From Candidatus Omnitrophota bacterium (GTDB lineage: Bacteria; Omnitrophota; Gorgyraeia; Duberdicusellales; 4484-171), in assembly GCA_028692655.1 (NCBI GenBank), contig JAQUWY010000007.1, positions 1 through 62,952 of the forward strand: 62,952 nucleotides of DNA, read 5' to 3'. Within the stretch, counting starts at the first letter, position 1. Each line of letters starts with the position of its first letter. Made by a program: the position numbers and the translations under genes. Below, piece after piece: positions 29,504-60,442 of the stretch. The notes beneath the pieces were generated by a model that did no database searches, was not told the origin of the DNA, and saw nothing but the letters and a program-made list of their open reading frames with translations.

Positions 29504-29509
29504 TTTATC

Positions 29510-29745
29510 TGTATTATTCAAAAGTTAAGTTTACAGTCTACTCTATAACCGTATCATTTACCGTTAGAGGGTTGTACCTGCCTACCGGTAGGCAGGTAGC
29601 TGGAAACGGCTGTCGTTGAACGTTAATCATCTCTATTCATAAGATTTTATTAACGCAGCCGGCAAACAAATAACGATACGAGTTACGCAACCGTATACCG
29701 TTTGCCTTTACACAAAATATATAAACACATCTCCAGAATTATACA
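29510..29745 (+). mobile_element. MITE copy A (236 bp)
   Basis: TGTATTATTC..GAATTATACA imperfect ~26-bp TIRs; TTTTATC duplicated at 29503-29509 and 29746-29752. Confidence 0.9.
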
Positions 29746-29785
29746 TTTTATCTCTGGCTAAGGTTTTTACAGCTTTATTCTTGCC

Positions 29786-29872
29786 GCGCGGGTGGTGGAA
29801 TTGGCAGACACGTTAGGTTGAGGGCCTAATGGTAGCAATATCATGGGGGTTCAAGTCCCCCCCCGCGCACCA
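29786..29872 (+). tRNA. tRNA-Leu(GAG)
   Basis: GCGCGGG/CCCGCGC acceptor, anticodon arm TTAGG-TTGAGGG-CCTAA, long variable arm, TTCAAGT, encoded CCA. Confidence 0.97.
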
Positions 29873-29914
29873 ATTAATCTAAAAAATGAGGCTACAATAA
29901 ATGCGGTTTTTAAG

Positions 29915-30631
29915 TTAGGCCAGTTCTAAATTTCCCCAAAGAAATATTTCACCTTCAAAAATAATAAGTAAACCTTCCACAAAAGGGTTTGTTGTAATGC
30001 AAGAAAACACTTCTTTTATATCTTTTCTCTGCTTGATCTGATTAGACAAAGATGTCGCTAAAGCATCAGCGACAGTTGCCCCGCTGGATAAAACCGTCAC
30101 TAAATCTGCCCTGCCGAAATTAAGGCTGTGCCCAATATGAGCCGAAGAAGAAGCAAGGCCAAAAGAACAGTCTCTGCTTTTTATTTTCAGTTTTATAACC
30201 TCCGGTTCAAAACATCTTCCGGCATAGACTCCTATTATTTTGTCCTCGTTGATCTTTAAGAATATATCTCCTCCGTTTTCTATGATTATCTCCTGAGAAA
30301 ACAAACTTAGCCTTAACCCTGTTTCTTCGGCAATAGCGCCGGCAACTGAAGCAAATGGGCCTATATTGGCAATCCTGGAAGCAGCAAGCATTTTTTGGAT
30401 GATAACCGCAGCGTTTTTATTTTCCCTAAGAGGGGAAAGGGAGGTTAAAAATTCGGGGTTGGACTTTGCATAATTTTCAATAACTTCGTAGCAATTAACG
30501 AGAACCTTCTTGGCTGACTCCTGGTCTATTTCCTCCTTTGAGCAGATAAGAAGATCGCTTTCTTGGAAACCTATCTCTAACTTATAATTTGCTTTGATTG
30601 TATCACGGTAAGACCGTTCTTCGTATGTCAT
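29915..30631 (-). CDS. UPF0280/ApbE-like protein
   Basis: GPFASVAGAIAE, ENGGDIF, GHSLNFGRAD. Confidence 0.88.
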   Translation of the reverse strand: MTYEERSYRDTIKANYKLEIGFQESDLLICSKEEIDQESAKKVLVNCYEVIENYAKSNPEFLTSLSPLRENKNAAVIIQKMLAASRIANIGPFASVAGAIAEETGLRLSLFSQEIIIENGGDIFLKINEDKIIGVYAGRCFEPEVIKLKIKSRDCSFGLASSSAHIGHSLNFGRADLVTVLSSGATVADALATSLSNQIKQRKDIKEVFSCITTNPFVEGLLIIFEGEIFLWGNLELA

Positions 30632-30715
30632 AAATGATAGCTTTTACTACTTCGGCGCTGATTTATGCAAATGTCAGTGAATACGGCCTGCTGGATTCGC
30701 CAAAACCGGGACCGG

Positions 30716-31354
30716 CTATTTTTGATAGTCTAAAACCACCACTTTTTTGAAAGTATTTACGTTTTCAGATGAAAGCTCTAAGTATCTCTCCTGCTGATAA
30801 TCTCTGCCTTTTAAGAATTCCTCGACTCCGGAAATATCAAAATCAATTTCGGGTGTCTTGTAGTGCATTGGTATTGAAATCCGGGGAGAAATATTTTCGA
30901 TTAATTTTACGGCTTCGGGGGCATCTATTGTAAAGGTTCCCCCCACAGGTACAAAAGCCACATCGATTCCTTTTAGCCTGGAATAATCTAAATCCAGAGT
31001 TCCTAGGTCTCCAAAGTGAGCAATCTTTAAGCCTTCGGCTTCGATTACAAAAATTATATTTTTCCCTCTTTGCCGGCCGCAGACCTTATCGTGATAAGAA
31101 TCAATACCTTCAACCTTTATGTTTTCTATATTATTTATACCGGCAGAGTTGATTATACATAAACATTTAAAATTTTCTATATAACAATGGTCTAAGTGGG
31201 AATGAGAAATTGTTACTATATCAGGACGAACATTTACAGGTTTATATCTTAAGGCACCGCCATAGCTGCCCGATTCATAAGGGTCGGTAATAACCTTAAA
31301 GCCTGATTTGGTTTCAATTAAAAAACAGGAGTGCCCCATCCAGCTTATTCTCAT
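30716..31354 (-). CDS. MBL-fold metallo-hydrolase
   Basis: GHSCF, SHSHLDH, HFGDLG, PMHY. Confidence 0.92.
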   Translation of the reverse strand: MRISWMGHSCFLIETKSGFKVITDPYESGSYGGALRYKPVNVRPDIVTISHSHLDHCYIENFKCLCIINSAGINNIENIKVEGIDSYHDKVCGRQRGKNIIFVIEAEGLKIAHFGDLGTLDLDYSRLKGIDVAFVPVGGTFTIDAPEAVKLIENISPRISIPMHYKTPEIDFDISGVEEFLKGRDYQQERYLELSSENVNTFKKVVVLDYQK

Positions 31355-31398
31355 TATCGCGCTTCTCCATTTTCTAAACTGGTTTTCTAAATTATCAA

Positions 31399-32082
31399 TT
31401 ATCCGTCATCAATTATTCTCTCTAGGATTTCGCGTGATACGCCAATATCCGCCACGAATATCTCGCCGCACATTTTGGGCCCCTTGTTTAAAAAAAATCC
31501 TTTCTTGGCGCCGATAAAAGTTATAGTATAATCCGCTCTGATGCTTTCCCCCTGGATAGTGCCTTCCTGAGCCGAAAGGCCGCTGGGGACATCACAGGAA
31601 ATTATTTTTTTCCCGCTTGAGTTTATTATGCCTATAACTTCCTGAGAAAATGCATCAGCCTTACCTTTGAGCCCTATTCCGAAAATACCTTCAAGAATAA
31701 AATCACAGGTATTAAGCATCTCTCTTAAAAGCCGGGTATTATCTTTTTTAATAGAGTTTATTTTTATACCACAGCCCTCAAGCGCCCGCTTCTGCCAAAA
31801 GGCTTCTTCCTTTAATGGCCTCTCTTCCAAGACAGCTATCTCTTCCTCCATGCCCCGGGAGGCCATTTTCCTGGCACAGCTTAACACGTCTGCTCCGTTG
31901 TTACCCCTTCCCGAAACAACCAAGGCTTTTTTGCCTAATCTCAGGCTCTCAATAATACAGAAAAGGTTGCTTGAAGCATTTTCTATTAGCTCTCTTTCGC
32001 TAAAACCGATTTTCTTTGCCGCACGGTCAAGTTCTTTTACCTGTTGAACATCTAATGGATATTTGCCGGAGTAATTTTTCAT
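31399..32082 (-). CDS. nnrE: NAD(P)H-hydrate epimerase (stand-alone YjeF N-terminal domain)
   Basis: LIENA, GRGNNGAD, DVPSG, VADIG. Confidence 0.88.
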   Translation of the reverse strand: MKNYSGKYPLDVQQVKELDRAAKKIGFSERELIENASSNLFCIIESLRLGKKALVVSGRGNNGADVLSCARKMASRGMEEEIAVLEERPLKEEAFWQKRALEGCGIKINSIKKDNTRLLREMLNTCDFILEGIFGIGLKGKADAFSQEVIGIINSSGKKIISCDVPSGLSAQEGTIQGESIRADYTITFIGAKKGFFLNKGPKMCGEIFVADIGVSREILERIIDDG

Positions 32083-32155
32083 TTTTAAGCAGTTTTACGC
32101 AAAACGAGGTTTTTAAAAACTGGGGAAGGATTACTTTCTAAACACAAAGCCTATA

Positions 32156-33127
32156 TTAATGAGTCTCATTTCTTCTGCCTCGTTTTTTAAACAGGCCTAA
32201 GAATTTATCCTCATACTCTTTGTATACATTCCAATGATCAAGCTCACCCTTAAGCTGATTAGCCACTCCAATATCTTTCTCAGTTTTTTTGAATAAATCC
32301 TCTATTTTTTCCCGGGCTGACTGAGGAAGCTTGGTATAGGCGGCTAGATCCTTTTTTATTTTATCTATATCCTCTTCGCTTAAGGGGCTGGGGCCGGGCT
32401 GAGGAGATTCTCCTTTAAGGTAACTTATAAGCTTATCTATCTCTTCTTCTATAAATTTGCTTCTTTGGATTATAGAGTCAAGATTCAAATTGAGCTTGAA
32501 ATATTTACTTAAAACCTGCAATATCCCGGCAGTAGCTTTGGGGTTTTCTATCTGAACCATATAAAATGGTATTTCGCCCAAAAGGCAAAATCCTGAGATT
32601 TTTTTCTTTTTTCCTACCCCAAGTATTATGCCGTTAAGGCCGCTGATTTGTCCCGAAGGTAACGTTTTCGCACCTATCTTTTCAAGCTCTGCCAAAAGGC
32701 TGCTGGTGGTGGCAGACGCCCATATTTTAGATTCACTGCGATGCTCAAGCGGTTCCGGTTTGGCAGCGAAAGTGCAGATGGTTTTAGCTTTGTATTTCTT
32801 TATAAAATTAATAATATGCAAAGAAAAGGCTTCAGCGTATTCTAAAGGGGGCTGGACCTCACCCAATAAAAGGATTATATCAGGAGAGTTTTTCCCTTTA
32901 TAATAATAGAAAAATCCTGCGGGGGCTGTAGGTATATCAAGTATTCCTTTATTAACTACAACGGCTGCCGGCTTGAAAAATTGTCCGGTCTCCAGCTTAG
33001 CAAATACTTTAAAGCTTAAGGCCTCTTTCAGAAAAAGAGCGCTTCTATATGCTACTTCACCCATTCCTGGCCAAGCAGCAATAAAAATTGGATCTTTTAG
33101 TTTTGGAGATGATATCTCTTTAATCAT
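32156..33127 (-). CDS. PAC2 family protein
   Basis: WPGMGEV, GQISGLNG, CLLGEIP. Confidence 0.85.
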   Translation of the reverse strand: MIKEISSPKLKDPIFIAAWPGMGEVAYRSALFLKEALSFKVFAKLETGQFFKPAAVVVNKGILDIPTAPAGFFYYYKGKNSPDIILLLGEVQPPLEYAEAFSLHIINFIKKYKAKTICTFAAKPEPLEHRSESKIWASATTSSLLAELEKIGAKTLPSGQISGLNGIILGVGKKKKISGFCLLGEIPFYMVQIENPKATAGILQVLSKYFKLNLNLDSIIQRSKFIEEEIDKLISYLKGESPQPGPSPLSEEDIDKIKKDLAAYTKLPQSAREKIEDLFKKTEKDIGVANQLKGELDHWNVYKEYEDKFLGLFKKRGRRNETH

Positions 33128-33215
33128 TTTTGCCTCAAATACATAGCTATTGCTTTAAACTTTACCATAATCACCATAAAAAACAAGCAAAAAACTTCTC
33201 TTGGTTTTTACCCCT

Positions 33216-34466
33216 TCACTTGGACGGCATAGCCTTATTGAGCGATTCAAGAAATTCCTTAAGTTTTTTTTCTGAACCAACGTCTTTGGGGTAATAGTAT
33301 TTCCGGCTTACACCGTAATCCTGCTTAATGAAACCTCCAAAATCATGAGGATACTTGTAATCTTTGGAGTGAGTCTTTATATGATCGGGGACTTCCTTAA
33401 CCGCTTCATCTTCTACACTGCTTAACGCTTTCTTTATAGCCAGACAAGCAGAATTAGACTTCAAGGAAGCTGCCAGATAGATAACTGTTTGGGCTAAAAT
33501 CAAGCCGGACTCGGGCATCCCGATAACCTCAACAGCCTTAAAACAGTTAGCCGCCAGCACAAGCGCAAAAGGATTGGCATTGCCGATATCTTCAGAGGCT
33601 AGAATAATCAGGCGCCGGGCAATAAACCTGGGGTCCTCACCAGCCTTAAGCATCTTTGCCAGCCAGTATAAGGCGCCATCAACATCGCTGCCTCGAATTG
33701 ATTTTATAAAGGCCGATATGGTATCATAATGGTAGCCGCCTGCCTTATCATAAAGAACTTTCTTTTGAACGCTGTTTTTTGCCAAGTCTAAGTCAAAAAC
33801 TACTCTTTCGCCAGGTAAAACCTTAGAACTTAAAACTCCTATTTCCAGGGCATTCAAAGCACTTCTGGCGTCTCCGCCGCAAACTTCAGCAATATAATTT
33901 AGAGCCTCATCTTTTATTTTGAGATCAAAACTCCCTATGCCTCGTTCCTTATCCCGGCAGGCCTTTTTGAGCAACTCTACAATATCTGCCTGGCTCAAAG
34001 GCTTAAATTGCACAACAATGGAACGGGAAATAAGAGAAGGTATCAAGTAATAGGAAGGGTTATGAATGGTCGCACCTACTAAGGTTATACTGCCGGTTTC
34101 AGTATCGGGAACCAAAGCCTCCTGCTGTAATTTATTAAACCTGTGGAATTCATCTATAAAAATAGTTGTTTTACGGCCGGTCTCGGACAAATTTTTTTTT
34201 GCTTTGGCAAGAACTTTTTTTACCTCACCCACCGAGGAAAAAGCAGCATTAAGATATTCGAAGTCGGAAGCCAGCTCTTTAGATATTACCAGGCCTAAAC
34301 TAGTTTTGCCGCTTCCTGGCGGGCCCCAGGCAATCAAAGAAGGCAGCCGGCGGGCAAAAATTGCCCTTTTCAATATTTTCCCGGTAGATAAAATATGGTT
34401 CTGGCCGACAAACTCTTCCAAGTTTTGGGGCCGCATTCGAAGGGCTAAGGGGATCTCTTTATGCAT
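33216..34466 (-). CDS. rarA: Replication-associated recombination protein A
   Basis: PLALRMRP, GPPGSGKT, SAFIKSIRGSD, ASEDIG. Confidence 0.95.
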   Translation of the reverse strand: MHKEIPLALRMRPQNLEEFVGQNHILSTGKILKRAIFARRLPSLIAWGPPGSGKTSLGLVISKELASDFEYLNAAFSSVGEVKKVLAKAKKNLSETGRKTTIFIDEFHRFNKLQQEALVPDTETGSITLVGATIHNPSYYLIPSLISRSIVVQFKPLSQADIVELLKKACRDKERGIGSFDLKIKDEALNYIAEVCGGDARSALNALEIGVLSSKVLPGERVVFDLDLAKNSVQKKVLYDKAGGYHYDTISAFIKSIRGSDVDGALYWLAKMLKAGEDPRFIARRLIILASEDIGNANPFALVLAANCFKAVEVIGMPESGLILAQTVIYLAASLKSNSACLAIKKALSSVEDEAVKEVPDHIKTHSKDYKYPHDFGGFIKQDYGVSRKYYYPKDVGSEKKLKEFLESLNKAMPSK

Positions 34467-34590
34467 ATTTCTTTAGTTTGTAAAATGAAGGGGGTTTTTC
34501 CGCAAAAGCAGAATCCCGCTGAATAAATACTTCCAAGGGCGGGAAATTCGATCTAGCATTTTTTCCGAAAAATGCTGATCTCATTAAAAT

Positions 34591-34752
34591 AAAACCCCGC
34601 CATGAGTCCGTCACAGGTTGACGCTATCAGTCCTTTCCTCATACAAGTGGGGGCTTCATCTTAACCCTTTACGGGAAAAGAGAATTCAGCTCCCTTGAGT
34701 CTGTTATTAGCTGTAGCGCTCTTACCTGCCAACGCGACAGGCAGGGTTACTT
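34591..34752 (-). ncRNA. ssrS: Probable 6S RNA
   Basis: Downstream of pheT; 5' ACCCTGCC pairs with 3' GGCGGGGT closing a ~160-nt rod; own promoter. Confidence 0.7.
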
Positions 34753-34760
34753 TCATCTTT

Positions 34761-34789
34761 ATTGTAACATTTGTTTTCTGTATTTTCAA
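34761..34789 (-). promoter_or_regulatory. sigma70-type promoter of the 6S-like RNA
   Basis: TTGAAA-N17-TACAAT. Confidence 0.65.
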
Positions 34790-34838
34790 GAAAGCCCCGG
34801 AGCACTGCGAAAACGTTTTCGCTAAACCAAACTCAACC

Positions 34839-36839
34839 TCAGCGTAGCACCACACCCTTGTAAGAGCTTAACGCCTTCCTGATATCATTATGAAAAAAAT
34901 CTACCTCCTCAGAAGAAAGGGTTTTTTCTGGAGATTGGTAAAAAATCCTTAAGGTAAACGCAGATTGATTTGAAGGTATATTTTTGTCTTTATATACATC
35001 TACAACTTGTAAATCGCTTAAATAATTTACTTTGCTGCGAATGATTTTTTCTATTTCCTTAAACCTTACATCGCGGCACAAAGCAATGCTTATATCTCGG
35101 CTCACAACAGGATAAGCGCTGAACTGTTTAAAAAACGCTTGTGAACTTTTTTTCTGTAAAGAACCTGCGTTAATTTGGCAAAAAAATACTTCCCCTTTTA
35201 GATCAAAGTCTTTTTTTACCGCTTGGTCTAACTTCCCCACAAATCCCAGAACATCTTCTCCAACGCATAGCGCTAAAGAATTGGTAAAATTATCCATCTC
35301 GGCCTCTTTGAAGTAATAGCCTTCTATATTCAAAAACTTCATTAATAATTCTACGGAACCTTTAAGCAGAAAAAAATCCTGGTTATTTCCTCCAAAAGCC
35401 AAAGCCAGCGACGGGATTTCCAAAAACCCGCTTTTTCCCAGCCCGTAGGTATCGGCTAATTCAAAAAACTTTAATTCATTCATGCCCCTGTTGAAATTAT
35501 GCCGGAGGCACCCCAGCATACCGGAAAGTAAACTTGGGCGCAGGCTGGCTTCCTGCTTGCGTAGGGGATTTATAATTCGCACAGTCGCCTCTTCTTGAAG
35601 CCGGGCGAGATCTTCTTTGGATTCAACACTGTAGGTCACTATCTCCTTAAACCCAAGCAAAGCCGCATAATCCTTTAGCTTGTTATTAAAACAATAACTC
35701 TGTTGGCCGCCGGCTTGAATTTTGGCACAAGCTGACGCTGGCAGAAATGGTATCCTGGACGGTATCTTGTCATACCCAAAAATACGGGATACTTCCTCGT
35801 AAACATCGACTTCTTTTCCAATGTCAAACCTCAACCGTGGAGGCATAATCGAAAAAACCTTGCTCGAAACTTCTCGAACCCTGCACCCCAAGGAAACAAG
35901 AATCTTTTTCACCTTTGCTTTTGGATACATAAGACCTAGATAACCTGAAAGCTTATCCAAATCCAAAATTATTTCTTTCCTTTTCGCCGCCGGTTTTTTC
36001 CCCGAAAAGCAACCGCCTGCGTAAATTCCGGAACATTTTTTTACCATAAGGAATGCGGCCTCTCGGCAAGCACACTCTAAATTGTCTGAAGACACCATTC
36101 TCTCGAACCGGTAGGAAGCTTCCGTATCAAGGCCGGCCGCACGGCGCGACCGCCGTACCGTAAGAGGAGAGAAAACAGCCGCTTCTAAAAAAACATTTTT
36201 AGTCTGGCTGGTAACTTCTGTATTTTTTGACCCCATAACTCCTGCCAAAGCAATAACTTTTTTATCATCAGCAATAACAAGATTCTGGCCGGTTAATTCT
36301 CTCTCCTTATCGTCAATGCCCAGGAATATCTCTCCTTTTCTGGCCCGTCGCACACAAACATTGCCTTCTATCTTATCTTCATCAAAAGCATGCAGGGGAT
36401 TACCCCATTTGAGCATGCAATAATTAGTTATATCTACTACATTGTTTACCGAAGTTAAACCACAATTAGCAAGAAACTGCTGCACTTTTAGGTCGCCTGG
36501 AGCAACCTTGGCCTGCCGCAGTACTTTGGCTATATAGTAAGGGCAATCCTGGCTGTCTTCTATCTTTATTGAACGAGCCTTATAAATTTTACCGGTTAAA
36601 GCAGGCGGTTCTTTGAGCTTTAATTTCTTGCCTAAAACTGCCGCTATCTCCCGGCTAATGCCCGTAATCGAAAGCCAATCGTAGCGGTTAGTAGTAACTT
36701 CTATATCAAAAACCCAGTCGCTGCCTAGTTTTTGCAAACTCTCAACTTCCATGCCAGCCATAGTCAAAACTTGAGACAGCCTTTCGGGCTCTATTTTGAT
36801 ATCTAAAAATTCTTTTATAAAATTTAAACTAAACCTCAT
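34839..36839 (-). CDS. pheT: Phenylalanyl-tRNA synthetase beta subunit (short form)
   Basis: DIEVTTNRYD, NNVVDITNY, HAFD, DVYEEV; start moved to MRFS behind AAGGAG. Confidence 0.96.
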   Translation of the reverse strand: MRFSLNFIKEFLDIKIEPERLSQVLTMAGMEVESLQKLGSDWVFDIEVTTNRYDWLSITGISREIAAVLGKKLKLKEPPALTGKIYKARSIKIEDSQDCPYYIAKVLRQAKVAPGDLKVQQFLANCGLTSVNNVVDITNYCMLKWGNPLHAFDEDKIEGNVCVRRARKGEIFLGIDDKERELTGQNLVIADDKKVIALAGVMGSKNTEVTSQTKNVFLEAAVFSPLTVRRSRRAAGLDTEASYRFERMVSSDNLECACREAAFLMVKKCSGIYAGGCFSGKKPAAKRKEIILDLDKLSGYLGLMYPKAKVKKILVSLGCRVREVSSKVFSIMPPRLRFDIGKEVDVYEEVSRIFGYDKIPSRIPFLPASACAKIQAGGQQSYCFNNKLKDYAALLGFKEIVTYSVESKEDLARLQEEATVRIINPLRKQEASLRPSLLSGMLGCLRHNFNRGMNELKFFELADTYGLGKSGFLEIPSLALAFGGNNQDFFLLKGSVELLMKFLNIEGYYFKEAEMDNFTNSLALCVGEDVLGFVGKLDQAVKKDFDLKGEVFFCQINAGSLQKKSSQAFFKQFSAYPVVSRDISIALCRDVRFKEIEKIIRSKVNYLSDLQVVDVYKDKNIPSNQSAFTLRIFYQSPEKTLSSEEVDFFHNDIRKALSSYKGVVLR

Positions 36840-36868
36840 ACGTCGCTTCCACTCCTTCACACTGATGG

Positions 36869-36952
36869 CCGCAGACAAATATTGCAGACAGCCACAGATA
36901 AAAAACAACATTTGTAATCATCGGCGTTCTTTAGTGTCTGTGAACATCTGCG
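36869..36952. repeat. CAGAT/ATCTG degenerate hairpin element, copy 3
   Basis: cgcagac..tgcagac..cacagat facing gtctgtgaacatctgcg. Confidence 0.7.
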
Positions 36953-36955
36953 ATA

Positions 36956-38035
36956 TCAAAATTGATCTAAAAACCTGACATCGTTTTCATAAAAAAGCCG
37001 TATATCGTCTACCCCGTACTTAAGCATTGCTATTCTCTCTACGCCCATGCCGAAAGCAAATCCCCGATATTTTTTGGGACTTATCCCGCAGGCTTTTAAA
37101 ACATCCGGGTGTATCATGCCGCAGCCTAAAATTTCAAGCCAGCCTTTGCCCTTACACACGCTGCATTTAGCGGTTTGCGGTTTGCGCCTGCCTGCCAGTA
37201 GGCAGGATTTATCAGTTTGCACAAATGACTTTTTATTTCTGCATATAATACAGGAAATATCCACCTCAGCCGAAGGTTCGGTGAAAGGAAAAAAATGCGG
37301 CCTGAATCTTAAGGATACATCGGGAGAAAAAAAAGTATGCGCGAACTGCAGAAGTACGCCTTTTAAATGGGAAAAATCCAGGCTTTCAGCCACAGCAAAG
37401 CCCTCTATCTGATGAAACATAAAAGAGTGCGTAGCATCAACTTCATCGGGCCTGTAGACTCTGCCGGGAGAAATTACCGCCAAGGGCGGCTTGGCATTCT
37501 TCATTACTCGAATTTGAGAAGGCGAGGTATGGCTTCTTAATAGATATTTGCCTTTTTTTGACTCCGGAATATCCAAATAAAAGGTATCAAAAGCATCCCT
37601 GGAAGGATGGTCTAAAGGTATATTTAAAGCTTCAAAATTGTGCCATTCGTCTTCAATCTCGGTTCCCTCAATAACAGAAAATCCTATATTTTCAAAAATA
37701 GAACATATCTGCCGGTTGACTTTAGTCAATACATGCAAAGAACCAGTATCAGGAATCCTGGAAGGAAAAGTTAGATCGGTCTTAGGTTCTGTCATTTGGC
37801 CAGTAGAAAGTTTTTGCTCCAATAATACAGTCATCTTGTTTTTTAAAACATTAAGGGCTTTGCCATAAACAGCCTTTTCTTCTTTAGACAAAGAAGGAAT
37901 TTGAGAAAAAAGCTTGGCCAAAGAAGACTTACGCCCCAGAAAATCGGTCTTAATTTCTTCTAGGCTCTTAGCATCATTATCGGCCTTTAGACGGTTATTA
38001 AATTCCTGGAATAATTGTTTAATTTTTTCTTCCAT
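36956..38035 (-). CDS. pheS: Phenylalanyl-tRNA synthetase alpha subunit
   Basis: HPSRDAFDTF, LRSHTS, FHQIEG, FPFTEPSAEVD, FAFGMGVER. Confidence 0.98.
   Translation of the reverse strand: MEEKIKQLFQEFNNRLKADNDAKSLEEIKTDFLGRKSSLAKLFSQIPSLSKEEKAVYGKALNVLKNKMTVLLEQKLSTGQMTEPKTDLTFPSRIPDTGSLHVLTKVNRQICSIFENIGFSVIEGTEIEDEWHNFEALNIPLDHPSRDAFDTFYLDIPESKKGKYLLRSHTSPSQIRVMKNAKPPLAVISPGRVYRPDEVDATHSFMFHQIEGFAVAESLDFSHLKGVLLQFAHTFFSPDVSLRFRPHFFPFTEPSAEVDISCIICRNKKSFVQTDKSCLLAGRRKPQTAKCSVCKGKGWLEILGCGMIHPDVLKACGISPKKYRGFAFGMGVERIAMLKYGVDDIRLFYENDVRFLDQF
37171..37206. repeat. REP-like palindrome plus 7-mer repeats in frame inside pheS
   Basis: cggtttg x2 followed by CCTGCCTGCCAGTAGGCAGG. Confidence 0.75.
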
Positions 38036-38504: not shown

Positions 38505-38516
38505 AGAATATAGACG

Positions 38517-40004: not shown

Positions 40005-40072
40005 TATTTTATGGATTTAGCAGCCACCGCCCTTGCTTGCGCGGATTTAAATAGCCGGCCGACACAGTGCAG

Positions 40073-40192
40073 TTAAAACACAAAAGAAAGCATATACCCA
40101 AGGCCTAAAAGAAACGCACAAAATAGAATCTCGGTAATAATCCCTAGTGTAATCTTTATCCCATTCTGGCCCAACTGGAAAGCTTTCATCAT
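40073..40192 (-). CDS. Small 39-aa single-TM protein (absent from ORF track)
   Basis: MMKAFQLGQNGIKITLGIITEILFCAFLLGLGYMLSFVF; ATGA overlap with trkA stop. Confidence 0.6.
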   Translation of the reverse strand: MMKAFQLGQNGIKITLGIITEILFCAFLLGLGYMLSFVF

Positions 40193-49714: not shown

Positions 49715-49732
49715 TTATCTCTTCGCTCCTAT

Positions 49733-52628: not shown

Positions 52629-52874
52629 AATAGTAACTCCCCCTATTTTTATTTTATATGAAGTCCCGCCGGCTTACAACGGTAACTGCTTTTTTAAAAC
52701 TTCCCTTTGGCGGAATGAAACCCCGAACCGAAAGTTATTTATCCTTGTTCTTATAGCGATAGCTTTTTGGTTCGCGGGTAAAGCAGTCAAGAAAATCAAT
52801 TATATAGCCCCACATCAAAAAATCAAATTTTATCTTTTTGGGGCCTTTTTCATAAAAACCTACCTCCAGTAAAT

Positions 52875-53540
52875 TCAGCTTGCCAGAATGCCTTTGGCCG
52901 CCTTTAAGTAATCTTTTTGGCTTATTATCGGCCGGCCCACTACTACATAATCGGCGCCTTGAGCAAACGCAAAATTAGCCGTAGCCACTCTCCTCTGGTC
53001 ACCCCTTGCTCCTTCAGGAGCGCGTATGCCGGGAGTTATCACTTTAAGCTTACAGTTTCTTTTTATTAAAGCAGCTTCTTTAGCTGAAGCGATGACTCCG
53101 TCTAAGCCACAAGCTTTAGCTGCCCGGGCTAGAGATAAAACAGATTTTCTATCGGCAGCTTCACTTGTCAGCTCAGTAACTCCCAGCACTAACGGCCTTC
53201 TAACTTTTAGTTTTCTGGCTGCCGCGGTTATTTCTTTTTTTACTTCCCTTAAGGCTTTTGGGCCAGACTTTATGTGGACGGTAAAAGCCCAGCAGCCCAT
53301 TTGCACATAGGTTTTAGAGGCCTCCTTCATTGTGTTGGGGATATCGTATAGTTTCAAATCCAAAAACACATCAATACCTTTGCCGATAATTGTTTTTACC
53401 AAAGCCGGGCCGAATTTGGTAAAAGCTATGGAGCCGATTTTAAACTTAACCCCCTTGGGGGAAAGCTTACGTACGGCATTATAGATTTTGCCTTTATCTT
53501 CTAAATCCAGAGCTACAATCAATTTTTTCCACTTAAGCAT
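52875..53540 (-). CDS. pyrF: Orotidine 5'-phosphate decarboxylase
   Basis: VALD, DLKLYDIPNT, TPGIR, VVGRPI. Confidence 0.96.
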   Translation of the reverse strand: MLKWKKLIVALDLEDKGKIYNAVRKLSPKGVKFKIGSIAFTKFGPALVKTIIGKGIDVFLDLKLYDIPNTMKEASKTYVQMGCWAFTVHIKSGPKALREVKKEITAAARKLKVRRPLVLGVTELTSEAADRKSVLSLARAAKACGLDGVIASAKEAALIKRNCKLKVITPGIRAPEGARGDQRRVATANFAFAQGADYVVVGRPIISQKDYLKAAKGILAS

Positions 53541-54438
53541 CGAGGCTGCCTCTTAGTTGGTTGATGTTGTTTATCTTTTTCTTTTTTAAATAGTTTTTTA
53601 TCCCCCTTAGGATTTTAACCGATGCTGCAGGGTCGATAAAATTAACCGTTCCCAAGCTAATGGCGGTGGCCCCAGCAATGATAAACTCCAGAGCGTCATC
53701 GGCAGTCTCTATGCCCCCGCCGCCAATAACCGGTATTTTTACGGCCCTTGAAACTTTCCATACTCTATATAAAGCCATAGGTTTAATTGCTCTTCCAGAA
53801 TAACCCCCATAGCAATTGCCCAGATATGGTGCGCCTGTCTGTATATTGACAGCCAGGCCGAAAAAAGTATTCACTGTAGAAATAGCATCTGCTCCGGCGG
53901 CGCAGGCAGCAACAGCTATTTCTTTTATGTCTGTAACTTCGGGCGTAATCTTTGCTATAAGTGTTTTTTTAGTCAGTCCGCGCAAAATCTTTATGGTTTC
54001 ATAAGTATCTTTTCTGCTTTGAGAAATTATCTTTTTGCGCTTGATATTGGGACAGGATAAATTAAGCTCAATCGCTTCAACGGCCTTCTCTTGGGAAAGC
54101 CTTTTAACCATTGTTTTGTATTCATTAATAGAAAACCCGCCGATACTCAAGATAAATTCTGTCTTTACCTTACTAAGCCTTGGCAGATCTTCGGCGATAA
54201 AGTTCTCCAGGCCTTTGCCTTCAAGGCCCACTGAATTTATAACCCCGCAACCGGTTTCATAAATTCTTGGCGGACAGTTACCCGGACAAGGATTAAGGGT
54301 TATGGTTTTAGCAGTTACCGCTCCAATGCTGGCATAATCCGCCAAACCCTTTAATTCATCTGAAGACCCAAAAGTCCCCGAAGCGCAAATTATTGGATTC
54401 CTAAGCTTTAATTTACCTATTTTTACTTTTAACTCCAT
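53533..54438 (-). CDS. pyrD: Dihydroorotate dehydrogenase B catalytic subunit
   Basis: ASGTFG, ELNLSCPN, GGYSGRAIKP, GGGGI. Confidence 0.95.
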   Translation of the reverse strand: MELKVKIGKLKLRNPIICASGTFGSSDELKGLADYASIGAVTAKTITLNPCPGNCPPRIYETGCGVINSVGLEGKGLENFIAEDLPRLSKVKTEFILSIGGFSINEYKTMVKRLSQEKAVEAIELNLSCPNIKRKKIISQSRKDTYETIKILRGLTKKTLIAKITPEVTDIKEIAVAACAAGADAISTVNTFFGLAVNIQTGAPYLGNCYGGYSGRAIKPMALYRVWKVSRAVKIPVIGGGGIETADDALEFIIAGATAISLGTVNFIDPAASVKILRGIKNYLKKKKINNINQLRGSLDA

Positions 54439-54582
54439 AGATTAATATTCTTTCCCTATAAGCTTAATACTTATTATAAATAAATGCAATAGCCAATCAA
54501 GGCGTTTTTTGAACCGGGGAAGCCTTGGCGTCTTTCTTTTACTCGGTGCGGCATTGATAAAGGTATCCTGAAATGCCTAAAA

Positions 54583-54939
54583 TTATTTGCTGAAAATAAG
54601 CTTTACAGAAATCAGCAATAGCAAACAGCCAAAAATCTTCTTTAATACGGGCTCGGGAACTTTCTGGACAATGCTTGCCCCGAGGAATCCCCCCAGAAAA
54701 AAACCCACACACATAAGCCCCGCCGCATTAACTTTAACATTGCCGGCATAGTAATACTTTAGAGCGGCCAGCAGGCCTATAGGAGGAATCATCATAGCCA
54801 AGGTTGTTCCCTGGGCCTGATGCTGGGTAAACCCGAACAGGCAAACCAAAGCCGGGATTACAAGCGCCCCGCCGCCTATGCCTAAAAACCCGCTAAAAAT
54901 TCCGGCACCGAACCCTAAAATTAAATATAAATACCACAT
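54583..54939 (-). CDS. TauE/TSUP family small membrane protein
   Basis: GFLGIGGG..P, QHQAQGTTL. Confidence 0.88.
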   Translation of the reverse strand: MWYLYLILGFGAGIFSGFLGIGGGALVIPALVCLFGFTQHQAQGTTLAMMIPPIGLLAALKYYYAGNVKVNAAGLMCVGFFLGGFLGASIVQKVPEPVLKKIFGCLLLLISVKLIFSK

Positions 54940-54960
54940 ATCCTCTCCTTATTAAATAGT

Positions 54961-55277
54961 AAAACTAAATATCTAAATTCTAAGCCCTAAATGTATTATT
55001 CGAAAGTTATGTTTACAGCCTGCTCTATAGCCGTATCATTCATCGTTAGAGAGTTGCGCCGGCCTACCGGTAGGCCGGCAGCTTGAAACGGCTGTCGTTG
55101 AACGTTAATCGTCTCCATTCCTAAGATTTTATTAACACAGCCGGCAAACGAATAACGATACGAGTTACGCAACCGTATACCGTTCGCCTTTACACAAAAT
55201 ATGTGAATATATCTTAAGAATTATACGCCCTAAACGAATTCATAGGGTTTGTTTAGGTTTTAGATTTTCGGATTTAT
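54961..55277. repeat. 7-mer repeat hairpin (CTAAAT/ATTTAG) split by MITE-B
   Basis: ctaaatatctaaattctaagccctaaa | cgaattcatagggtttgtttaggttttagattttcggattt. Confidence 0.65.
54992..55227 (+). mobile_element. MITE copy B (236 bp)
   Basis: Aligns end to end with copy A; CCCTAAA duplicated at 54985-54991 and 55228-55234. Confidence 0.9.
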
Positions 55278-55301
55278 GATTTTTCATTGGCTTAGCTGTT
55301 T

Positions 55302-56099
55302 TCAAAAGATATCTCTCAAATTAAACACCGGGCCGTCTTTGCAAACTTTTTTATATCCCTTTTTTGTCTCGATTACACAGCCGTGGCAAACTCCCAAGCC
55401 ACAGCCCATAAATTGTTCAAAAGATACCTGGCAATTTATCCCGGGATACTTTTTTATAATTTTATGGATTTCGTAAAACATTTCCTTGGGGCCGCAGGCA
55501 TATATCGTATATCGCAGGTCGCATGTCGTATGTCGTAAAATACCTTTCAGTAAGGCGACAACGGTACTTTTGTGGCCTCTGGAACCGTCTTCGGTAGCAA
55601 CATAAACCTTACAGCCTAAATCCTTAAATTCTTTCTCGCACAATACTTCCTTTTTTGTCTTTGCTCCCAGTAGTATTAAATTTTGATTTTTTGGTTTTGG
55701 GTCTTTGGTTTCCGTTAGTTTTTTTGCTAAAAAAACTAACGGCGCCACACCGAGGCCGCCGGCTATAAGAATATGTTGAACGTTAGACGCAGGACGCGGG
55801 ACGTAAAATCCTTTGCCGAGAGGGCCAATTATATCCAGAGCCGCTCCGGGCTTTAGCCTCGATAGCGCTTCCGTACCTTTACCCCTGACTCTAAAAAGAA
55901 TAAAAACATCTTTACCCTGGACTCTGTGAATACTCAAAGGGCGCCTCAAAAGAACAGGTTTTATTTTAAGGTGGAGAAACTGCCCCGGATAAGAGTTGGA
56001 ACTTATATAAGAAGATGTAAATCTTAGCAGAAACACATCGGATTTAAGCTTTTTTACTTCTTTAACCCTAGCTTTGATATTTTTGGCCGCTTGCTTCAT
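55302..56099 (-). CDS. pyrK: Dihydroorotate dehydrogenase electron transfer subunit
   Basis: RRPLSI, GPLGKG, AGGLGVAP, ACGP, CGLGVCHGC..C. Confidence 0.94.
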   Translation of the reverse strand: MKQAAKNIKARVKEVKKLKSDVFLLRFTSSYISSNSYPGQFLHLKIKPVLLRRPLSIHRVQGKDVFILFRVRGKGTEALSRLKPGAALDIIGPLGKGFYVPRPASNVQHILIAGGLGVAPLVFLAKKLTETKDPKPKNQNLILLGAKTKKEVLCEKEFKDLGCKVYVATEDGSRGHKSTVVALLKGILRHTTCDLRYTIYACGPKEMFYEIHKIIKKYPGINCQVSFEQFMGCGLGVCHGCVIETKKGYKKVCKDGPVFNLRDIF

Positions 56100-56105
56100 T
56101 ATAAC

Positions 56106-57974
56106 TCATTTTACCAGAGGCTGGTTTTTTCTCAATTTCTTTCGCAGTTCCTCATCTTTAAAATCTATCCTTGAAACTTGCCTTAAGCCCTGTACGGAAT
56201 TGCCTAAATATACCTTGTCGGCACCAAACACATCTTCGTAACGTAGCACTTTCTCTTTGGCCCGGCCAGAAAGTAAGAGGTGTTGTCTTAACACCCCGGG
56301 CAGAAGCCCGCAGGAAACAGGCGGCGTATACAAGAGGTTTGCGCAGGAAATGAAAATATTATTTATAGCTCCTTCTGTAAATTCTCCTTTTTCATTAATG
56401 AATAACGTTTCATCAAATCCTTTATTGACAGCTCTTCTTCTTTGCCCGTTATATCGGTGCCGGTAAGAGGTCTTGTGGTATAAAAAAATGTTCTCGGGAT
56501 CGATGATCTTTGAGCTTACCAAAACTCTTGCCGGTGGCTTAGCTTTAATGAAAGGTTTACTTTCTATTTTCAGGCGTCCGTCTTTGGCTATTAAAACGCG
56601 GATTTTATATCTGCCGGGTTTTATTTCTGCCCGCAGCTTTCTTGTTAACTCCTTAGAATCGTATTGAATACCAAAATACCGGCAGGATTTAGCCAGCCTC
56701 TTTAAATGTTCCTCCAGAAGCCAATACTTTCCTCTATCCAGCAGAAGGCTTTCAATCAAACAAAAACGCCTGTTGTTATCGGTAAAAAATTTCGCTTTTA
56801 GGAGAGTTTCTTCGTATTCCCGGCAAGATACAGAATCATACACTATGCCTGCGCCTACGCCCAGCTCACCGCGGCCTTTGTGTATTTCTAAAGTCCTTAT
56901 GGCCACATTAAAGCAAGCTTTACTCTCGGGAGATATGTATCCTATGGCGCCGGTATAGACACCCCGCGTTTTCCCTTCAAGCTCTCTTATTATCTCCATA
57001 GTTTTAATTTTTGGCGCTCCGGTAACCGAACCGCAGGGGAAAAGCGAGGCAAATAGCTTCTGTGTTTCTACTCTTTCGCGCAAGCTTGCGGATATAGTAG
57101 ATGTCATTTGATAAAGCGTTTTATGTTTTTCTATCTGGAAAAGGTTGGGAACGCTTACCTTGGCCGCAACTCTTCCCAGGTCATTTCTAAGCAGATCTAC
57201 TATCATAACATTCTCGGCTCTGTCCTTACCGCTTTCCAATAACTCCCTCCTATGCTGTTTGTCTTTGGAATAACTTGGCCCTCTTTTCATGGTTCCTTTC
57301 ATGGGGCGGGCCAGAAGAGTTTTTTTATCCTGACGAAAAAAGAGCTCGGGGGAAAAAGAAAGAACCTGCCGCGAGCCGGTATCTACAAAAGCGGTGTAAG
57401 CAGTTGGCTGGTTCTTTCTTAAGTCCGAATAAAGAGCTGCAGCGCATCCGGTAAAATCGAATCTAATCTTAAAGGTAAAATTTACCTGGTACGTCAGGCC
57501 TTGGCACAGGTATTTTTTTATCTGCCTTATCTTTGCAAAATATTCTCTTGGGCCGATATCCGGCTTTATGTTTTTTATCGTATACAGATTAGGCGGCGAT
57601 TTTTTCTGGCAGGCGCTGCCGAAGGAAAAACTTTTTCCGGAAAAAACCTCCGGGGCCCTAAACACCCCCAGCCAAACAAGCGGGAAATTACTCCCGCGGC
57701 AAAAAGCGCTTAAAGACTTTTCCAGAAAATAACCGAACTCATAAGTAAAGTATCCGGCCATCCAGAACCCTTTGGCTAAATAACTCTCAATTTTTTTGAA
57801 AAGCTCTTTTGGGCTGTCTCCGTTATTAAATGTCAATACGTCCAAGGGCTCATCAAACCAAAAAGATTTTTTATTCTCTTTGTCGCTTGAGAGGGTTTCT
57901 AATAAAACGCACCCTCCCCGTGCCGGCACAGATGAGGATTCAAATAAATTTTTGTATATTGAGCCTTTCTTCAT
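56106..57974 (-). CDS. pabB: Aminodeoxychorismate synthase component I fused to class IV aminotransferase (ADC lyase-like)
   Basis: YQVNFT, SPELF, KDRAENVMIVDLLRNDLG, TGAPK; C-terminal HKT, EGAINN, GLLPG. Confidence 0.9.
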   Translation of the reverse strand: MKKGSIYKNLFESSSVPARGGCVLLETLSSDKENKKSFWFDEPLDVLTFNNGDSPKELFKKIESYLAKGFWMAGYFTYEFGYFLEKSLSAFCRGSNFPLVWLGVFRAPEVFSGKSFSFGSACQKKSPPNLYTIKNIKPDIGPREYFAKIRQIKKYLCQGLTYQVNFTFKIRFDFTGCAAALYSDLRKNQPTAYTAFVDTGSRQVLSFSPELFFRQDKKTLLARPMKGTMKRGPSYSKDKQHRRELLESGKDRAENVMIVDLLRNDLGRVAAKVSVPNLFQIEKHKTLYQMTSTISASLRERVETQKLFASLFPCGSVTGAPKIKTMEIIRELEGKTRGVYTGAIGYISPESKACFNVAIRTLEIHKGRGELGVGAGIVYDSVSCREYEETLLKAKFFTDNNRRFCLIESLLLDRGKYWLLEEHLKRLAKSCRYFGIQYDSKELTRKLRAEIKPGRYKIRVLIAKDGRLKIESKPFIKAKPPARVLVSSKIIDPENIFLYHKTSYRHRYNGQRRRAVNKGFDETLFINEKGEFTEGAINNIFISCANLLYTPPVSCGLLPGVLRQHLLLSGRAKEKVLRYEDVFGADKVYLGNSVQGLRQVSRIDFKDEELRKKLRKNQPLVK

Positions 57975-57984
57975 TTGTTACGGA

Positions 57985-58788
57985 TTATTTCTGGCAGCGC
58001 GGGCAGAAATATGTACCTCGTCCGGCTAAACGGATTCGCTTGATATGGGTTTTACATCTAAGACAGGGTTCATCTTTTCTGTCATAAACTTTATGATATT
58101 TTGCGTAGCTGCCCCGGGCGCCAGAAAGCTGTAAATACTGGTCTACGGAAGAGCCTTTACATCGTATAGCTTCTTTAAGGGTTTTCTTGAGTTCGTCCAG
58201 TAACAGCTTTGTTTCTTCGGCAGACAAACTATTTGCGGGCCGTGCCGGATTAATTTTCGCACGAAACAGCGCTTCGTTAGCGTAAATATTCCCGATTCCG
58301 GAGATAAACTTTTGGTCTAACAATAAAGGCTTTATTTTTGTTTTTCTTGAGCTAACCATCTCTTTAAACTCACCCAATGATATCCCAAACGGTTCCGGGC
58401 CCAGTGTTTTGATAAATTTTAATTCTTTCCAATCGTCAACTATCCGCAATTCTGCGAACAACCTGCCGTCATTAAAATCTAATGTTTTGCCGTTAGAAAG
58501 TTTAAAGGCAATCCTTGTTGATTTAGAGCCCTTGCCCGGATAAATTAATTGCCCAGCCATTTTTAGATGAATCGTCAAAAACTTTCTGTTCGATAGTTCG
58601 ATAACCAGTAATTTTGCTTTTCTTAAAATACTTTTTATCGTTGCCCCGGTTATAGCTTTCTGAAATTTTGCGGGGGAAGGTTCTTTGATCACCTTCGGAT
58701 TAATCACAAAAACTTTTGTGATTTTTTTACCTAAAACCGCTTTTCCCAATTCACGCTTTATTGTCTCAACTTCCGGTAATTCGGGCAT
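57985..58788 (-). CDS. mutM: Formamidopyrimidine-DNA glycosylase
   Basis: MPELPEVET, HLKMAG, GIGNIYANE, C-terminal zinc finger. Confidence 0.97.
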   Translation of the reverse strand: MPELPEVETIKRELGKAVLGKKITKVFVINPKVIKEPSPAKFQKAITGATIKSILRKAKLLVIELSNRKFLTIHLKMAGQLIYPGKGSKSTRIAFKLSNGKTLDFNDGRLFAELRIVDDWKELKFIKTLGPEPFGISLGEFKEMVSSRKTKIKPLLLDQKFISGIGNIYANEALFRAKINPARPANSLSAEETKLLLDELKKTLKEAIRCKGSSVDQYLQLSGARGSYAKYHKVYDRKDEPCLRCKTHIKRIRLAGRGTYFCPRCQK

Positions 58789-58823
58789 ATCTTCTACCTT
58801 TAAACTATCTCCAGAAAAAGCTC

Positions 58824-58870
58824 TAATCTCTAAATTCTAAATCCTAAACAAATTTCAAATCTGAAACTTA
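58824..58870. repeat. 7-mer repeat tract (CTAAAT)
   Basis: tctaaat tctaaat cctaaac aaatttc aaatctg. Confidence 0.6.
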
Positions 58871-58920
58871 AAGCAATAAACTCTTTTTAAAAAATGCTGG
58901 TTCCGCAAAATTCTGTATAG

Positions 58921-59358
58921 TTATCCCCGCCTTGACAAATCTTCGGCAAAGCAGGCACGGCGGCCGGTGTCTATTGTTTTTACATAAACTTGCCTTGTTC
59001 GTGGGCCGTCAAACTCGCAGAAATAAATTCCTTGCCAAGTGCCTAGCTTAAGCTGTCCGCCTTTGATTATAACCATAAGGCTGTTTCCAAAAAGCGAACT
59101 TTTTATATGAGCGTCTGAATTACCTTCCTGATGCGAGAAATTTTTCCCGGAAGGGATTGCTTTGCCAAGATAAGCTAATATATCTTGGATAACCGCAGGG
59201 TCAGCATTTTCATTTATGGTCAAAGCCGCGGTGGTGTGAGGACAAAAAACACAACATAACCCTGATTTAGCCCCTTTCCCAGAAATTACTCTTAAGATGT
59301 CAGTGGTAATGTCTATAAACTCTGTTTTCTTTTTTGTGGAAACCTGCAGAACTTTCAT
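58921..59358 (-). CDS. YjbQ family protein (paralog 2) with C-terminal extension
   Basis: HTTAALTINENADP, NSDAHIKS, LGTWQGIYFCEFDGPR. Confidence 0.93.
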   Translation of the reverse strand: MKVLQVSTKKKTEFIDITTDILRVISGKGAKSGLCCVFCPHTTAALTINENADPAVIQDILAYLGKAIPSGKNFSHQEGNSDAHIKSSLFGNSLMVIIKGGQLKLGTWQGIYFCEFDGPRTRQVYVKTIDTGRRACFAEDLSRRG

Positions 59359-59364
59359 CTGTTT

Positions 59365-59601
59365 TTAAAGAAACAAGAGGAAAAACAAGAAAAACGATAC
59401 AACAAGAATAATGGCTGTCCATACAAACCATGCCGGCCGGGCTGAATCATTATCGTCGATAAGTTTGCCGCAATAATAACAACTTATTGCATCCTCAGGA
59501 ATCGGCTTAGAACAATAAGGGCATTTCTTCATCTTGCCAAAATCCAAGCCTTCTTGTTCTTGAGAAAAGCTTTGGTAATCGAATTTGCCTTCGGCCATCA
59601 T
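59365..59601 (-). CDS. Small zinc-ribbon protein with C-terminal TM
   Basis: CPYC..CYYC, hydrophobic tail. Confidence 0.7.
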   Translation of the reverse strand: MMAEGKFDYQSFSQEQEGLDFGKMKKCPYCSKPIPEDAISCYYCGKLIDDNDSARPAWFVWTAIILVVSFFLFFLLFL

Positions 59602-59605
59602 CCCC

Positions 59606-60121
59606 TTAAACTAAACCTTTATACACACCACTGTAACCCTGGGTTTCTTCTACCGGGAAAAACACCAGTTGAGCCAGGCGGGCATTTTCTTTTATCCTGA
59701 CACCTGCGCCATTTTCTACAATCAAAATAAATTCGCCTTTGCCCCGAAAACCCGCGTCCCAAACCCCATGCTGGGTAAATGCCCCCATGCGTAAAAGAGA
59801 AGTGCGGGTAAATGCTAAAGCAGTAAGGTCGTTGGGCAAATTAACGGTTTCATTTGTCTTTACTTTATATGCACCTTTTGGGAGTTCCCACCAGCCGTAA
59901 GAATCCGTTACAGAATCCTTCATAGGTTTAAGTTCTTTCGCGGCCGGGACTACTCTTTGAGAATTAGAAAAATCAAGCGCGCCGGATCCTTCAAACACAA
60001 AAATCCCTCCGGCAGTTAAATCAAACCCGTTGGGAGTAAGTTGTTTATCCAGAGCTATAAAATTTTCTATTAGCTTTTTATTTTCAATCAACGCACTGAT
60101 CTGTTTTTTGTTTAACATCAC
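59606..60121 (-). CDS. dUTPase / dCTP deaminase family protein
   Basis: PNGFDL, RTSLLRMG, VWDAGFRG, ARLAQLVF, YSGVY. Confidence 0.85.
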   Translation of the reverse strand: MMLNKKQISALIENKKLIENFIALDKQLTPNGFDLTAGGIFVFEGSGALDFSNSQRVVPAAKELKPMKDSVTDSYGWWELPKGAYKVKTNETVNLPNDLTALAFTRTSLLRMGAFTQHGVWDAGFRGKGEFILIVENGAGVRIKENARLAQLVFFPVEETQGYSGVYKGLV

Positions 60122-60208
60122 ACCCCTTCCCTTTTATGCTCTTGGCTTATTGCGCGCTTTGATTTTCAGTTTTCCCATTTTCCGGTTAATTCATTCAGTT
60201 CACCATAG

Positions 60209-60442
60209 TGTAAAATTGTAGAGATATGTTTACATATTTTGTATTGTCAAACGGTATACGGTTGCGTAACTCGTATCGTTATTCGTTTGCCGGCTGCGTT
60301 AATAAAATCTCATGAATAGAGACAGTTGACGTTCAACGACAGCCGTTTCAAGCTACCTGCCTACCGGTAGGCAGGCACAACCCTCTAACGATGAATGACA
60401 CGGCTATAGAGTAGGCTGTAAACATAACTTTCGAATAATACA
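60209..60442 (-). mobile_element. MITE copy C (234 bp, inverted)
   Basis: Reverse complement aligns with A and B; no target duplication visible. Confidence 0.88.

Follow-up and report, generated by a model that had tools for sequence, protein, structure and literature searches.

Introduction

The Correia elements of Neisseria (CREE, also called NEMIS) are intergenic, multi-copy repeats of 100-160 bp with 26-bp inverted ends, a hairpin and promoter-like ends; RNase III binds or cuts their transcripts, and they alter how genes nearby are expressed (PMC2649163, PMC2229807). Here, we describe a miniature inverted-repeat transposable element (MITE) of a Candidatus Omnitrophota bacterium, for which the Correia element is the closest functional analogue. 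Three copies of the MITE (A, B and C) lie between positions 29510 and 60442 of the window, by which we mean the whole 62,952-nucleotide stretch of DNA that was analysed (contig JAQUWY010000007.1 of assembly GCA_028692655.1). The MITE is likewise small and intergenic, with 26-bp ends, a long hairpin and promoter-like sequence; as regards promoter and processing, the likeness is, on the side of the MITE, a prediction from sequence. The two differ in that CREE duplicates TA and has no identified parent insertion sequence (IS), whereas the Omnitrophota MITE has 7-bp duplications and an identified parent.

We are confident that a 1.14-kb IS481-family IS of Omnitrophota has mobilised the MITE in trans through its DDE transposase, and that the interior of the MITE is a captured palindrome. 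This reading is carried by the ends of the element, its duplications, an empty site with a single 7-mer, and the parent IS, whose ends and duplication length agree with those of the MITE. The transposase would bind the terminal inverted repeats of ~26 bp (TGTAYWATTC...GTTTACA) and insert the element at a 7-bp staggered cut in the target, and gap repair would then leave the 7-bp duplication. In its layered build, IS-derived ends enclose the captured palindrome of ~130 nt, itself a dispersed repeat in this bacterial family, and a perfect 20-nt palindrome sits inside the larger one.

IS481-family elements are 0.95-1.3 kb in size, a range into which the parent IS of 1.14 kb fits. The type of the family is IS481 of Bordetella pertussis (ISfinder). 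Termini of the family are typically TGT...ACA, and its target duplications span 2-15 bp, with 6 bp being commonest (PMC10045372). The parent IS resembles the family in having one open reading frame (ORF) for a protein with an N-terminal helix-turn-helix (HTH) and an rve DDE domain, TGT...ACA termini and inverted ends of ~26 bp, but it duplicates 7 bp, compared with 6 bp in most members (PMC10045372). Its group is hosted by Omnitrophota and Planctomycetota, and what lies in the window is not the IS but a derivative of it without genes.

The REPINs of REP-RAYT systems are also short, palindromic, dispersed intergenic repeats, and the genome studied here has RAYT-like genes (PMC3116915). However, REPINs are without IS-type terminal inverted repeats and target duplications, both of which the MITE has, and the likeness may bear on no more than the core module or the 20-nt palindrome. 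Further marks of REP-RAYT systems are GTAG-type hairpins as substrates and repeats on the flanks of a RAYT gene. Mobile palindromes of very small size that sit inside other repeats occur among the small dispersed repeats of cyanobacteria and the GC clusters of yeast mitochondria. The GC-rich 20-nt palindrome is like them in being present or absent in otherwise identical sequence, at ~29 loci and inside a mobile element, but unlike them its insertion point is fixed, after GGTT(A)GCG.

No description of a MITE in Omnitrophota or of an IS481-linked MITE came up in the library that was searched. Omnitrophota, a phylum known almost only from metagenomes, gains a fully worked pair of MITE and IS, with ends, duplication, empty site and parent. 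Apart from its layered build, the element is of an ordinary kind. The combination of an IS vehicle, a captured palindrome resembling an intervening sequence (IVS) and a site-specific 20-mer is the less ordinary part, and offers leads towards mobilisation mechanisms in a repeat-rich lineage.

Copies, ends and target duplications

Copy A (29510-29745, plus strand, 236 bp) is located between a gene for a response-regulator/GGDEF protein and the tRNA-Leu(GAG) gene, which occupies 29786-29872 on the plus strand, 40 nt downstream of the element. Copy B (54992-55227, plus strand, 236 bp) is flanked by TauE-family and PyrK-like genes, and copy C (60209-60442, minus strand, 234 bp), which is inverted, by the genes for dCTP deaminase and carB. 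All three copies are intergenic and align end to end with 89-90% identity. The left end of the MITE reads TGTATTATTCGAAAGTTATGTTTACA and the right end, as its reverse complement, TGTATAATTCTGGAGATGTGTTTACA; the two arms of ~26 bp (TGTA...TACA) are imperfect inverted repeats that match at 21/26 bases. The left terminal inverted repeat of copy A covers 29510-29535 on the plus strand (TGTATTATTCAAAAGTTAAGTTTACA), and the right arm 29720-29745. The final base of copy B is G, not A, and copy C carries a variant right end (...CAATTTTACA). The longest ORF starting with ATG within a MITE copy is 29-40 aa.

Exact 7-bp duplications flank copy A (TTTTATC, at 29503-29509 and 29746-29752) and copy B (CCCTAAA, at 54985-54991 and 55228-55234). 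In 200,000 random placements in this genome, the chance of a 7/7 match at this spacing was 1.75e-4. Copy C has no target duplication, with 3/7 flanking bases matching. A preliminary description of the sequence had placed the three copies correctly to the base, and had reported their end-to-end alignment, the imperfect 26-bp inverted repeats beginning TGTA, the absence of an ORF, and exact 7-bp duplications at A and B but none at C, all of which our analysis reproduces. It had not seen the captured interior repeat, the nested 20-nt palindrome, or that a cognate transposase is missing from the assembly.

The window is contig C12 of the host assembly, a Candidatus Omnitrophota metagenome-assembled genome (MAG) from a landfill metagenome (1.65 Mb, 62 contigs, 39.8% GC, 91% complete). 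As the preliminary description had predicted, more copies occur across the genome: the MAG contains 17 copies of the MITE on 11 contigs, all of them intergenic, of which 12 are full length and 5 truncated or deleted. Nine of the full-length copies measure ~236 bp, and the three that are without the 20-nt palindrome 215-217 bp. The full-length copies are 85-96% alike in pairwise comparison (median 90%), with conservation roughly even along their length, and every one of them retains the terminal inverted repeats. The 5' part has been lost from three copies, twice at the palindrome and once (C34:16152) close beside it. A further copy is without its 3' part, again with the break at the palindrome, and another is deleted internally between CCGTAT repeats.

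Exact duplications (7/7) are found at five full-length copies (TTTTATC, CCCTAAA, TTCGGGT, AACTAAA and ATAAAAC), and near-exact ones at C22:36527 (6/7) and C10:7939 (7/7 with a shift of 1 nt). In its size, which for the class lies below ~500 bp, its lack of coding capacity, terminal inverted repeats, duplication, dispersed copies and possession of the ends of an autonomous IS, the element has every defining feature of a MITE.

Empty sites in related strains

Empty sites were sought by comparing the window with Logan contigs of public landfill and groundwater runs. At the site of copy A, the sequence of a related strain (~87% identity in the flanking gene) reaches position 29510 and then continues as CTGGCTTAAGCTTTCAGAAACAATATAGCATATT directly into tRNA-Leu. 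A 94-nt contig of the relative is identical to the window at 29481-29510 (100%), and in runs X2 and X5 this match is followed by CTGGCTTAAGC... and tRNA-Leu, without the MITE. The site in the relative reads ...AGAGTATAC-TTTTATC-TCTGGCTTAAGC..., with a single 7-mer preceded by bases that end in TATAC, and the right flank of copy A in the window, TTTTATC-TCTGGCTAAGG, is homologous to the sequence that follows the 7-mer in the relative. The break point of this empty site thus coincides exactly with the ends of the inverted repeats. The preliminary description had made its reading depend on whether loci lacking the element still carry both 7-mers; the relative carries one TTTTATC, and the duplication was therefore made by the insertion.

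At the site of copy B, a relative has at most 145 nt between 54940 and 55300, compared with 359 in the window, and so is without this copy. At the site of copy C, the MITE is also absent from a relative, in which 60208 is joined to 60457 via 21 other letters. The insert in the window consists here of the MITE plus 7 bases (CTCTTTA in the orientation of the element), and CTCTTTA also flanks two other copies, the one on contig C37 on its left and C45:18430 on its right. Copy C is thus truly without a duplication and may have originated by an aberrant event.

The parent insertion sequence

We scanned the GTDB species representatives, and then metagenomes, for the pattern of the ends. The GTDB scan yielded 15 loci, in Omnitrophota, one Planctomycetia MAG and Ca. 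Scalindua rubra, several of them exactly at contig ends, as expected for a repeat that breaks assemblies. In the metagenomes, a first pattern combining the terminal inverted repeat with a subterminal motif gave no matches, and the end-pattern scan gave a 1,423-nt contig (L075) that contains a complete IS of 1,149 bp at L075:214-1362. Its left end is TGTATTATTCAGGAGATGTGTTTACA and its right end, as the reverse complement, TGTACTATTCACAAGTCAAGTTAACA. The left end matches the right arm of the MITE at 24/26 bases and the left arm at 21/26.

The IS has one unframeshifted ORF, for a 333-aa protein with HTH_28, rve and rve_3 domains, and is without an IstB-like helper. The motifs GID(160), SDNG(224) and CCER(260) provide D160, D224 and E260, with the D-64-D-36-E spacing of this superfamily. 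The best NCBIfam model for the transposase is NF033577 transpos_IS481 (193 bits, E = 5e-57), compared with 99 bits for IS3 and 24 bits for IS21. The parent IS thus classified has the features of the IS481 family except for the curated score cut-off. The preliminary description had proposed a non-autonomous element of an IS with TGT..ACA ends, of the IS481, IS21 or IS30 family, and the first of these is the family of the parent.

That the MITE belongs instead to another TGT...ACA family (IS21, IS30, IS3 or Tn7-like) appears extremely improbable to us. Such termini are common to the whole retroviral-integrase superfamily, and the transposase scores below the IS481 trusted cut-off, both of which would suit a different assignment; the IS with matching ends, however, is 1.14 kb long with a single unframeshifted 333-aa ORF and no helper gene, the IS481 model is ahead of IS3 by ~95 bits and of IS21 by 170, and the only IS3-family element in the genome has unrelated ends.

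The duplication of the L075 copy itself is unclear owing to low-complexity flanks. Homologues of the transposase with 62-63% amino acid identity are present in two related genomes, and there the duplications can be read. G001, a genome of the same family (63% identity), has ~6 copies of the IS, which forms a contig of its own of 1,140 nt. Eleven contig ends of G001 stop in the IS, five in its left end and six in its right end, and each of the five left junctions shares an identical 7-mer with a right junction (TACAGAT, AAGTGAC, TGTTACA, AACAGCG and GAAATTG). G316, a genome of the same class, has a 1,142-bp IS inside a contig with GACAAAG on both sides, and one pair of its contig ends is joined through TCTGGTA. 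The autonomous IS therefore has an exact 7-bp duplication at 7/7 checked insertions in these two genomes, the same length as in the MITE; its own length ranges from 1139 to 1149 bp, and its termini are TGTA...TACA. Both the element and its IS break assemblies, and matching 7-mers allow contigs to be joined, as with the 10 contig ends of G001 that can be paired into a scaffold.

The ends also occur on MITEs with other interiors in further Omnitrophota MAGs. One such MITE (L057) is flanked by an exact 7-bp duplication (TGTTGGA). A MITE in L055, which likewise shares the ends, has a duplication matching at 6/7 bases. A solo end beside a PadR gene in G060 (L046/L067) was the first candidate for a parent and was rejected, since 6.8 kb of sequence around it contain neither a transposase nor a second end. 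In G061, a search for the repeat interior gave contig-end junctions only. In Ca. Scalindua rubra (L048, MAYW01000120.1), a 40-nt mini-element at 5543-5582 consists of little beyond two inverted ends (TGTATTATTCAATAGGTGTGTTTACATTTTGAATAGTACA). This IS group may thus have left a minimal derivative in an anammox planctomycete.

IS remnants and other transposases in the host genome

A transposase between the same terminal repeats, a possibility raised in the preliminary description, is present in two related genomes (G001 and G316) and on a metagenome contig (L075), but in the own genome of the MITE no transposase lies between such ends. What this genome has are three solo IS481-type ends, at C3:55421, C25:27673 and C25:40326, the second of which retains ~20 nt of subterminal sequence of the IS. 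Since these solo ends remain, the lineage formerly hosted the IS; the MITE is probably stranded in this MAG, or its IS was not assembled or binned. At C25:40301-40427, an internally deleted MITE copy of 93 nt abuts with its right end on the IS-type end at C25:40326 over a 7-nt spacer. The junction, ...TTTTACA-AACTAGA-TGCACTATC..., resembles in its geometry a junction between two inverted repeats, with a spacer as long as the target duplication.

The sole rve gene of the MAG is part of an IS3-family element (OrfA + OrfB) at C3 ~55810-57066 (L112:765-2021), the ends of which are unrelated to those of the MITE. This element is inserted in a methyltransferase gene, which it splits in two.

Several observations weigh against transposition by an IS481-family enzyme as a full account of the copies. 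No cognate transposase was detected by tblastn in the 91%-complete MAG, and mobilisation in trans is for this reason inferred and not seen. The 193 bits of the transposase stand against a trusted cut-off of 224 bits for the NCBIfam IS481 model. Moreover, the four copies of a subfamily with a variant right end (...CTCTACAATTTTACA; copy C, C37:20286, C15:53362 and C57:81250) have no exact duplication, and a search of these copies for duplications of other lengths or at other offsets gave just weak, unconvincing matches of 4-5 bp. Because the extra CTCTTTA of copy C also flanks the copy on C37, a different process, for example aberrant transposition or recombination, may have spread some of the copies. 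Finally, three truncated copies are cut at the 20-nt palindrome and a fourth (C34:16152) close beside it, and at least three of the truncated copies are joined there to a different repeat.

The captured palindromic core

In copy A, the core module occupies 29555-29715 on the plus strand, where it is recognised by a covariance model (R1, 97.8 bits), by nhmmer and by alignment to stand-alone copies. It is an imperfect palindrome of ~130 nt, composed of short ACG-containing repeats with a conserved base (GGTTGCGTAGCT...AGCTACGCAACC), and is interrupted by the 20-nt palindrome. Positions ~45-205 of the MITE are not derived from the IS: the R1 model has no match on L075, L076 or L111. Across the family, the model has matches in 22 of the 73 genomes and in 12 of the 37 genera, with a patchy distribution of either 0 or ~10-44 matches per genome, both strands scoring since the core is palindromic. 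Copies in other genera are without IS481-type ends. The own genome has 28 core loci, 16 within MITE copies and 12 stand-alone matches that correspond to ~11 loci, one being split. In MITEs of two other Omnitrophota MAGs (L050 and L055), ends of this type enclose the core as well, and the chimera is therefore old or was formed more than once.

The wide dispersal of the core without such ends, here at ~11 stand-alone loci, raises the alternative that the core is the true mobile unit, an IVS- or REPIN-like hairpin moved by a single-strand enzyme such as the RAYT or by another system, with the IS481-type ends as passengers. The MAG has 4-5 Y1_Tnp genes (C34:2111, C54:23486, C34:64670, C14:13874 and, in the window, 1859-2446), and the MITE copies with variant ends lack duplications. 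The ORF at 1859-2446 is a weak Y1_Tnp (RAYT-like) match of 27 bits, and is missing from the four genes found by the family scan of the whole genome. Nevertheless, we consider this alternative very unlikely. The boundaries of the 12 full-length copies are exactly the IS-type ends, not the boundaries of the core, and the relative with the empty site of copy A breaks off exactly at these ends too. At seven copies, the 7-bp duplication is exact or nearly so, and HUH enzymes are not known to make such duplications. No copy of the MITE or of the core adjoins any of the Y1_Tnp genes in the own genome. The doubt expressed in the preliminary description that the RAYT mobilises the element was thus justified, given the 7-bp duplications and the absence of copies beside Y1_Tnp genes.

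At C34:44329-44824, core arms bracket a gene for a 143-aa 23S_rRNA_IVP protein (four-helix bundle; Pfam, 73 bits), the left arm ending at the ATG and the right arm overlapping the stop codon. The arrangement is like that of the stem of an IVS in 23S rRNA with its 23S_rRNA_IVP ORF, but the cassette lies outside any rRNA gene. This locus suggests that the core could be the ORF-less form of an IVS-like cassette.

Stand-alone cores are located upstream, in the sense orientation, of cutA-ccdA, rimO-like and cysE genes (N-termini judged by eye), and in G016, which belongs to another genus, a core lies directly upstream of a cutA-like ORF. Such positions would fit a functional structured RNA gene or a cis-regulatory leader, for which the inverted ends and the 7-mers would be incidental. 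The element as a single strand folds better than shuffled sequences (z = -3.7), a promoter-like site in it is conserved, and the orthologous copy of a relative is 100% identical, compared with 80-95% in the flanking genes. We nonetheless judge a structured RNA to be highly improbable. In searches of Rfam, the window gives no match above the gathering score other than tRNAs, and neither copy B (L009) nor seven stand-alone cores have a match at E ≤ 1. Compensatory change was found in 0/15 predicted pairs of the core stem. The absence of both is why the core is not called a structured RNA. Between co-directional genes, the MITE is antisense in 10 cases and sense in 4, a difference that is not significant. 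The presence of the repeats varies between related strains at three sites and is patchy among genera.

The promoter-like site, TTTACA-16-TATCAT, is located in the left end of the MITE (29530-29557 in copy A, plus strand), matches the consensus at 10/12 positions and is conserved in the copies. A second promoter-like sequence, TTTGCA-18-TATACT, occupies 29474-29503 of the window, and copy A is inserted directly after it; in the relative with the empty site, the same TTTGCA-18-TATACT stands ~40 nt before tRNA-Leu. We speculate that, in the window, tRNA-Leu may be transcribed through a hairpin-rich leader of 236 nt, or from the promoter-like site of the MITE.

The nested 20-nt palindrome

A perfect palindrome, CCTGCCTACCGGTAGGCAGG, is nested in copy A at 29577-29596. 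In copy B (55059-55078), it has the variant form CCGGCCTACCGGTAGGCCGG, in which both arms are changed (CCGG...CCGG) with pairing preserved, and in copy C it lies at 60356-60375. Including close variants, CCTGCCTACCGGTAGGCAGG is found at 29 loci genome-wide, always after GGTT(A)GCG. Its alignment column is shared by the MITE and the stand-alone cores C25:10238 and C57:7074, although these two are just 56-70% identical to the core of the MITE.

A related MAG (L049/L073) has an orthologue of the C37 copy that lacks the 20 nt but otherwise shows 100% identity over the whole MITE; the junction without the palindrome reads GGGTTGC[GC]CTGCCTACCGGTAGGCAG[GC]AGCTCG. The palindrome must therefore have come or gone separately from the MITE, at a single site. 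As judged from these alignments, its entry appears to be independent of the MITE and confined to one motif, GGTTGCG^YAGCT, and it behaves as a putative independently mobile, site-specific mini-element. Around the same orthologue (L073:6787-7567), the MITE and ~300 nt are 97-100% identical between the two genomes, with 80-95% in the flanking genes; the patch appears to reflect unusually high local conservation or recent exchange.

In three of the truncated MITE copies (C46:8157, C15:50038 and C45:18430), the truncation is joined to arrays of a ~8-nt repeat (AAAAACTG-like), followed by GGTTGAGG-type arrays, and at C34:16152 the joined sequence is not the ~8-nt arrays. The unit of array and palindrome (e.g. 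C9:20250-20700) is found at no fewer than 12 other loci in the own genome. As truncations at the palindrome are joined to these arrays, the palindrome also acts as a point of breakage or recombination.

Taken one step further, the MITE might be a mobile chimera of three layers that functions as RNA, in which IS481-type ends spread an IVS-like hairpin module and the 20-nt palindrome uses GGTTGCG^YAGCT as its landing pad. We offer this only tentatively and think it rather unlikely. If it were true, a promoter and a processing site of the RNase III type would arrive with the module, as with copy A between tRNA-Leu and its promoter, and a module that elsewhere brackets 23S_rRNA_IVP genes and sits in 5' leaders would have been spread into new transcription units.

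Within the window, a further variant of the palindrome is present at 37187-37206, inside the ORF at 36956-38035.

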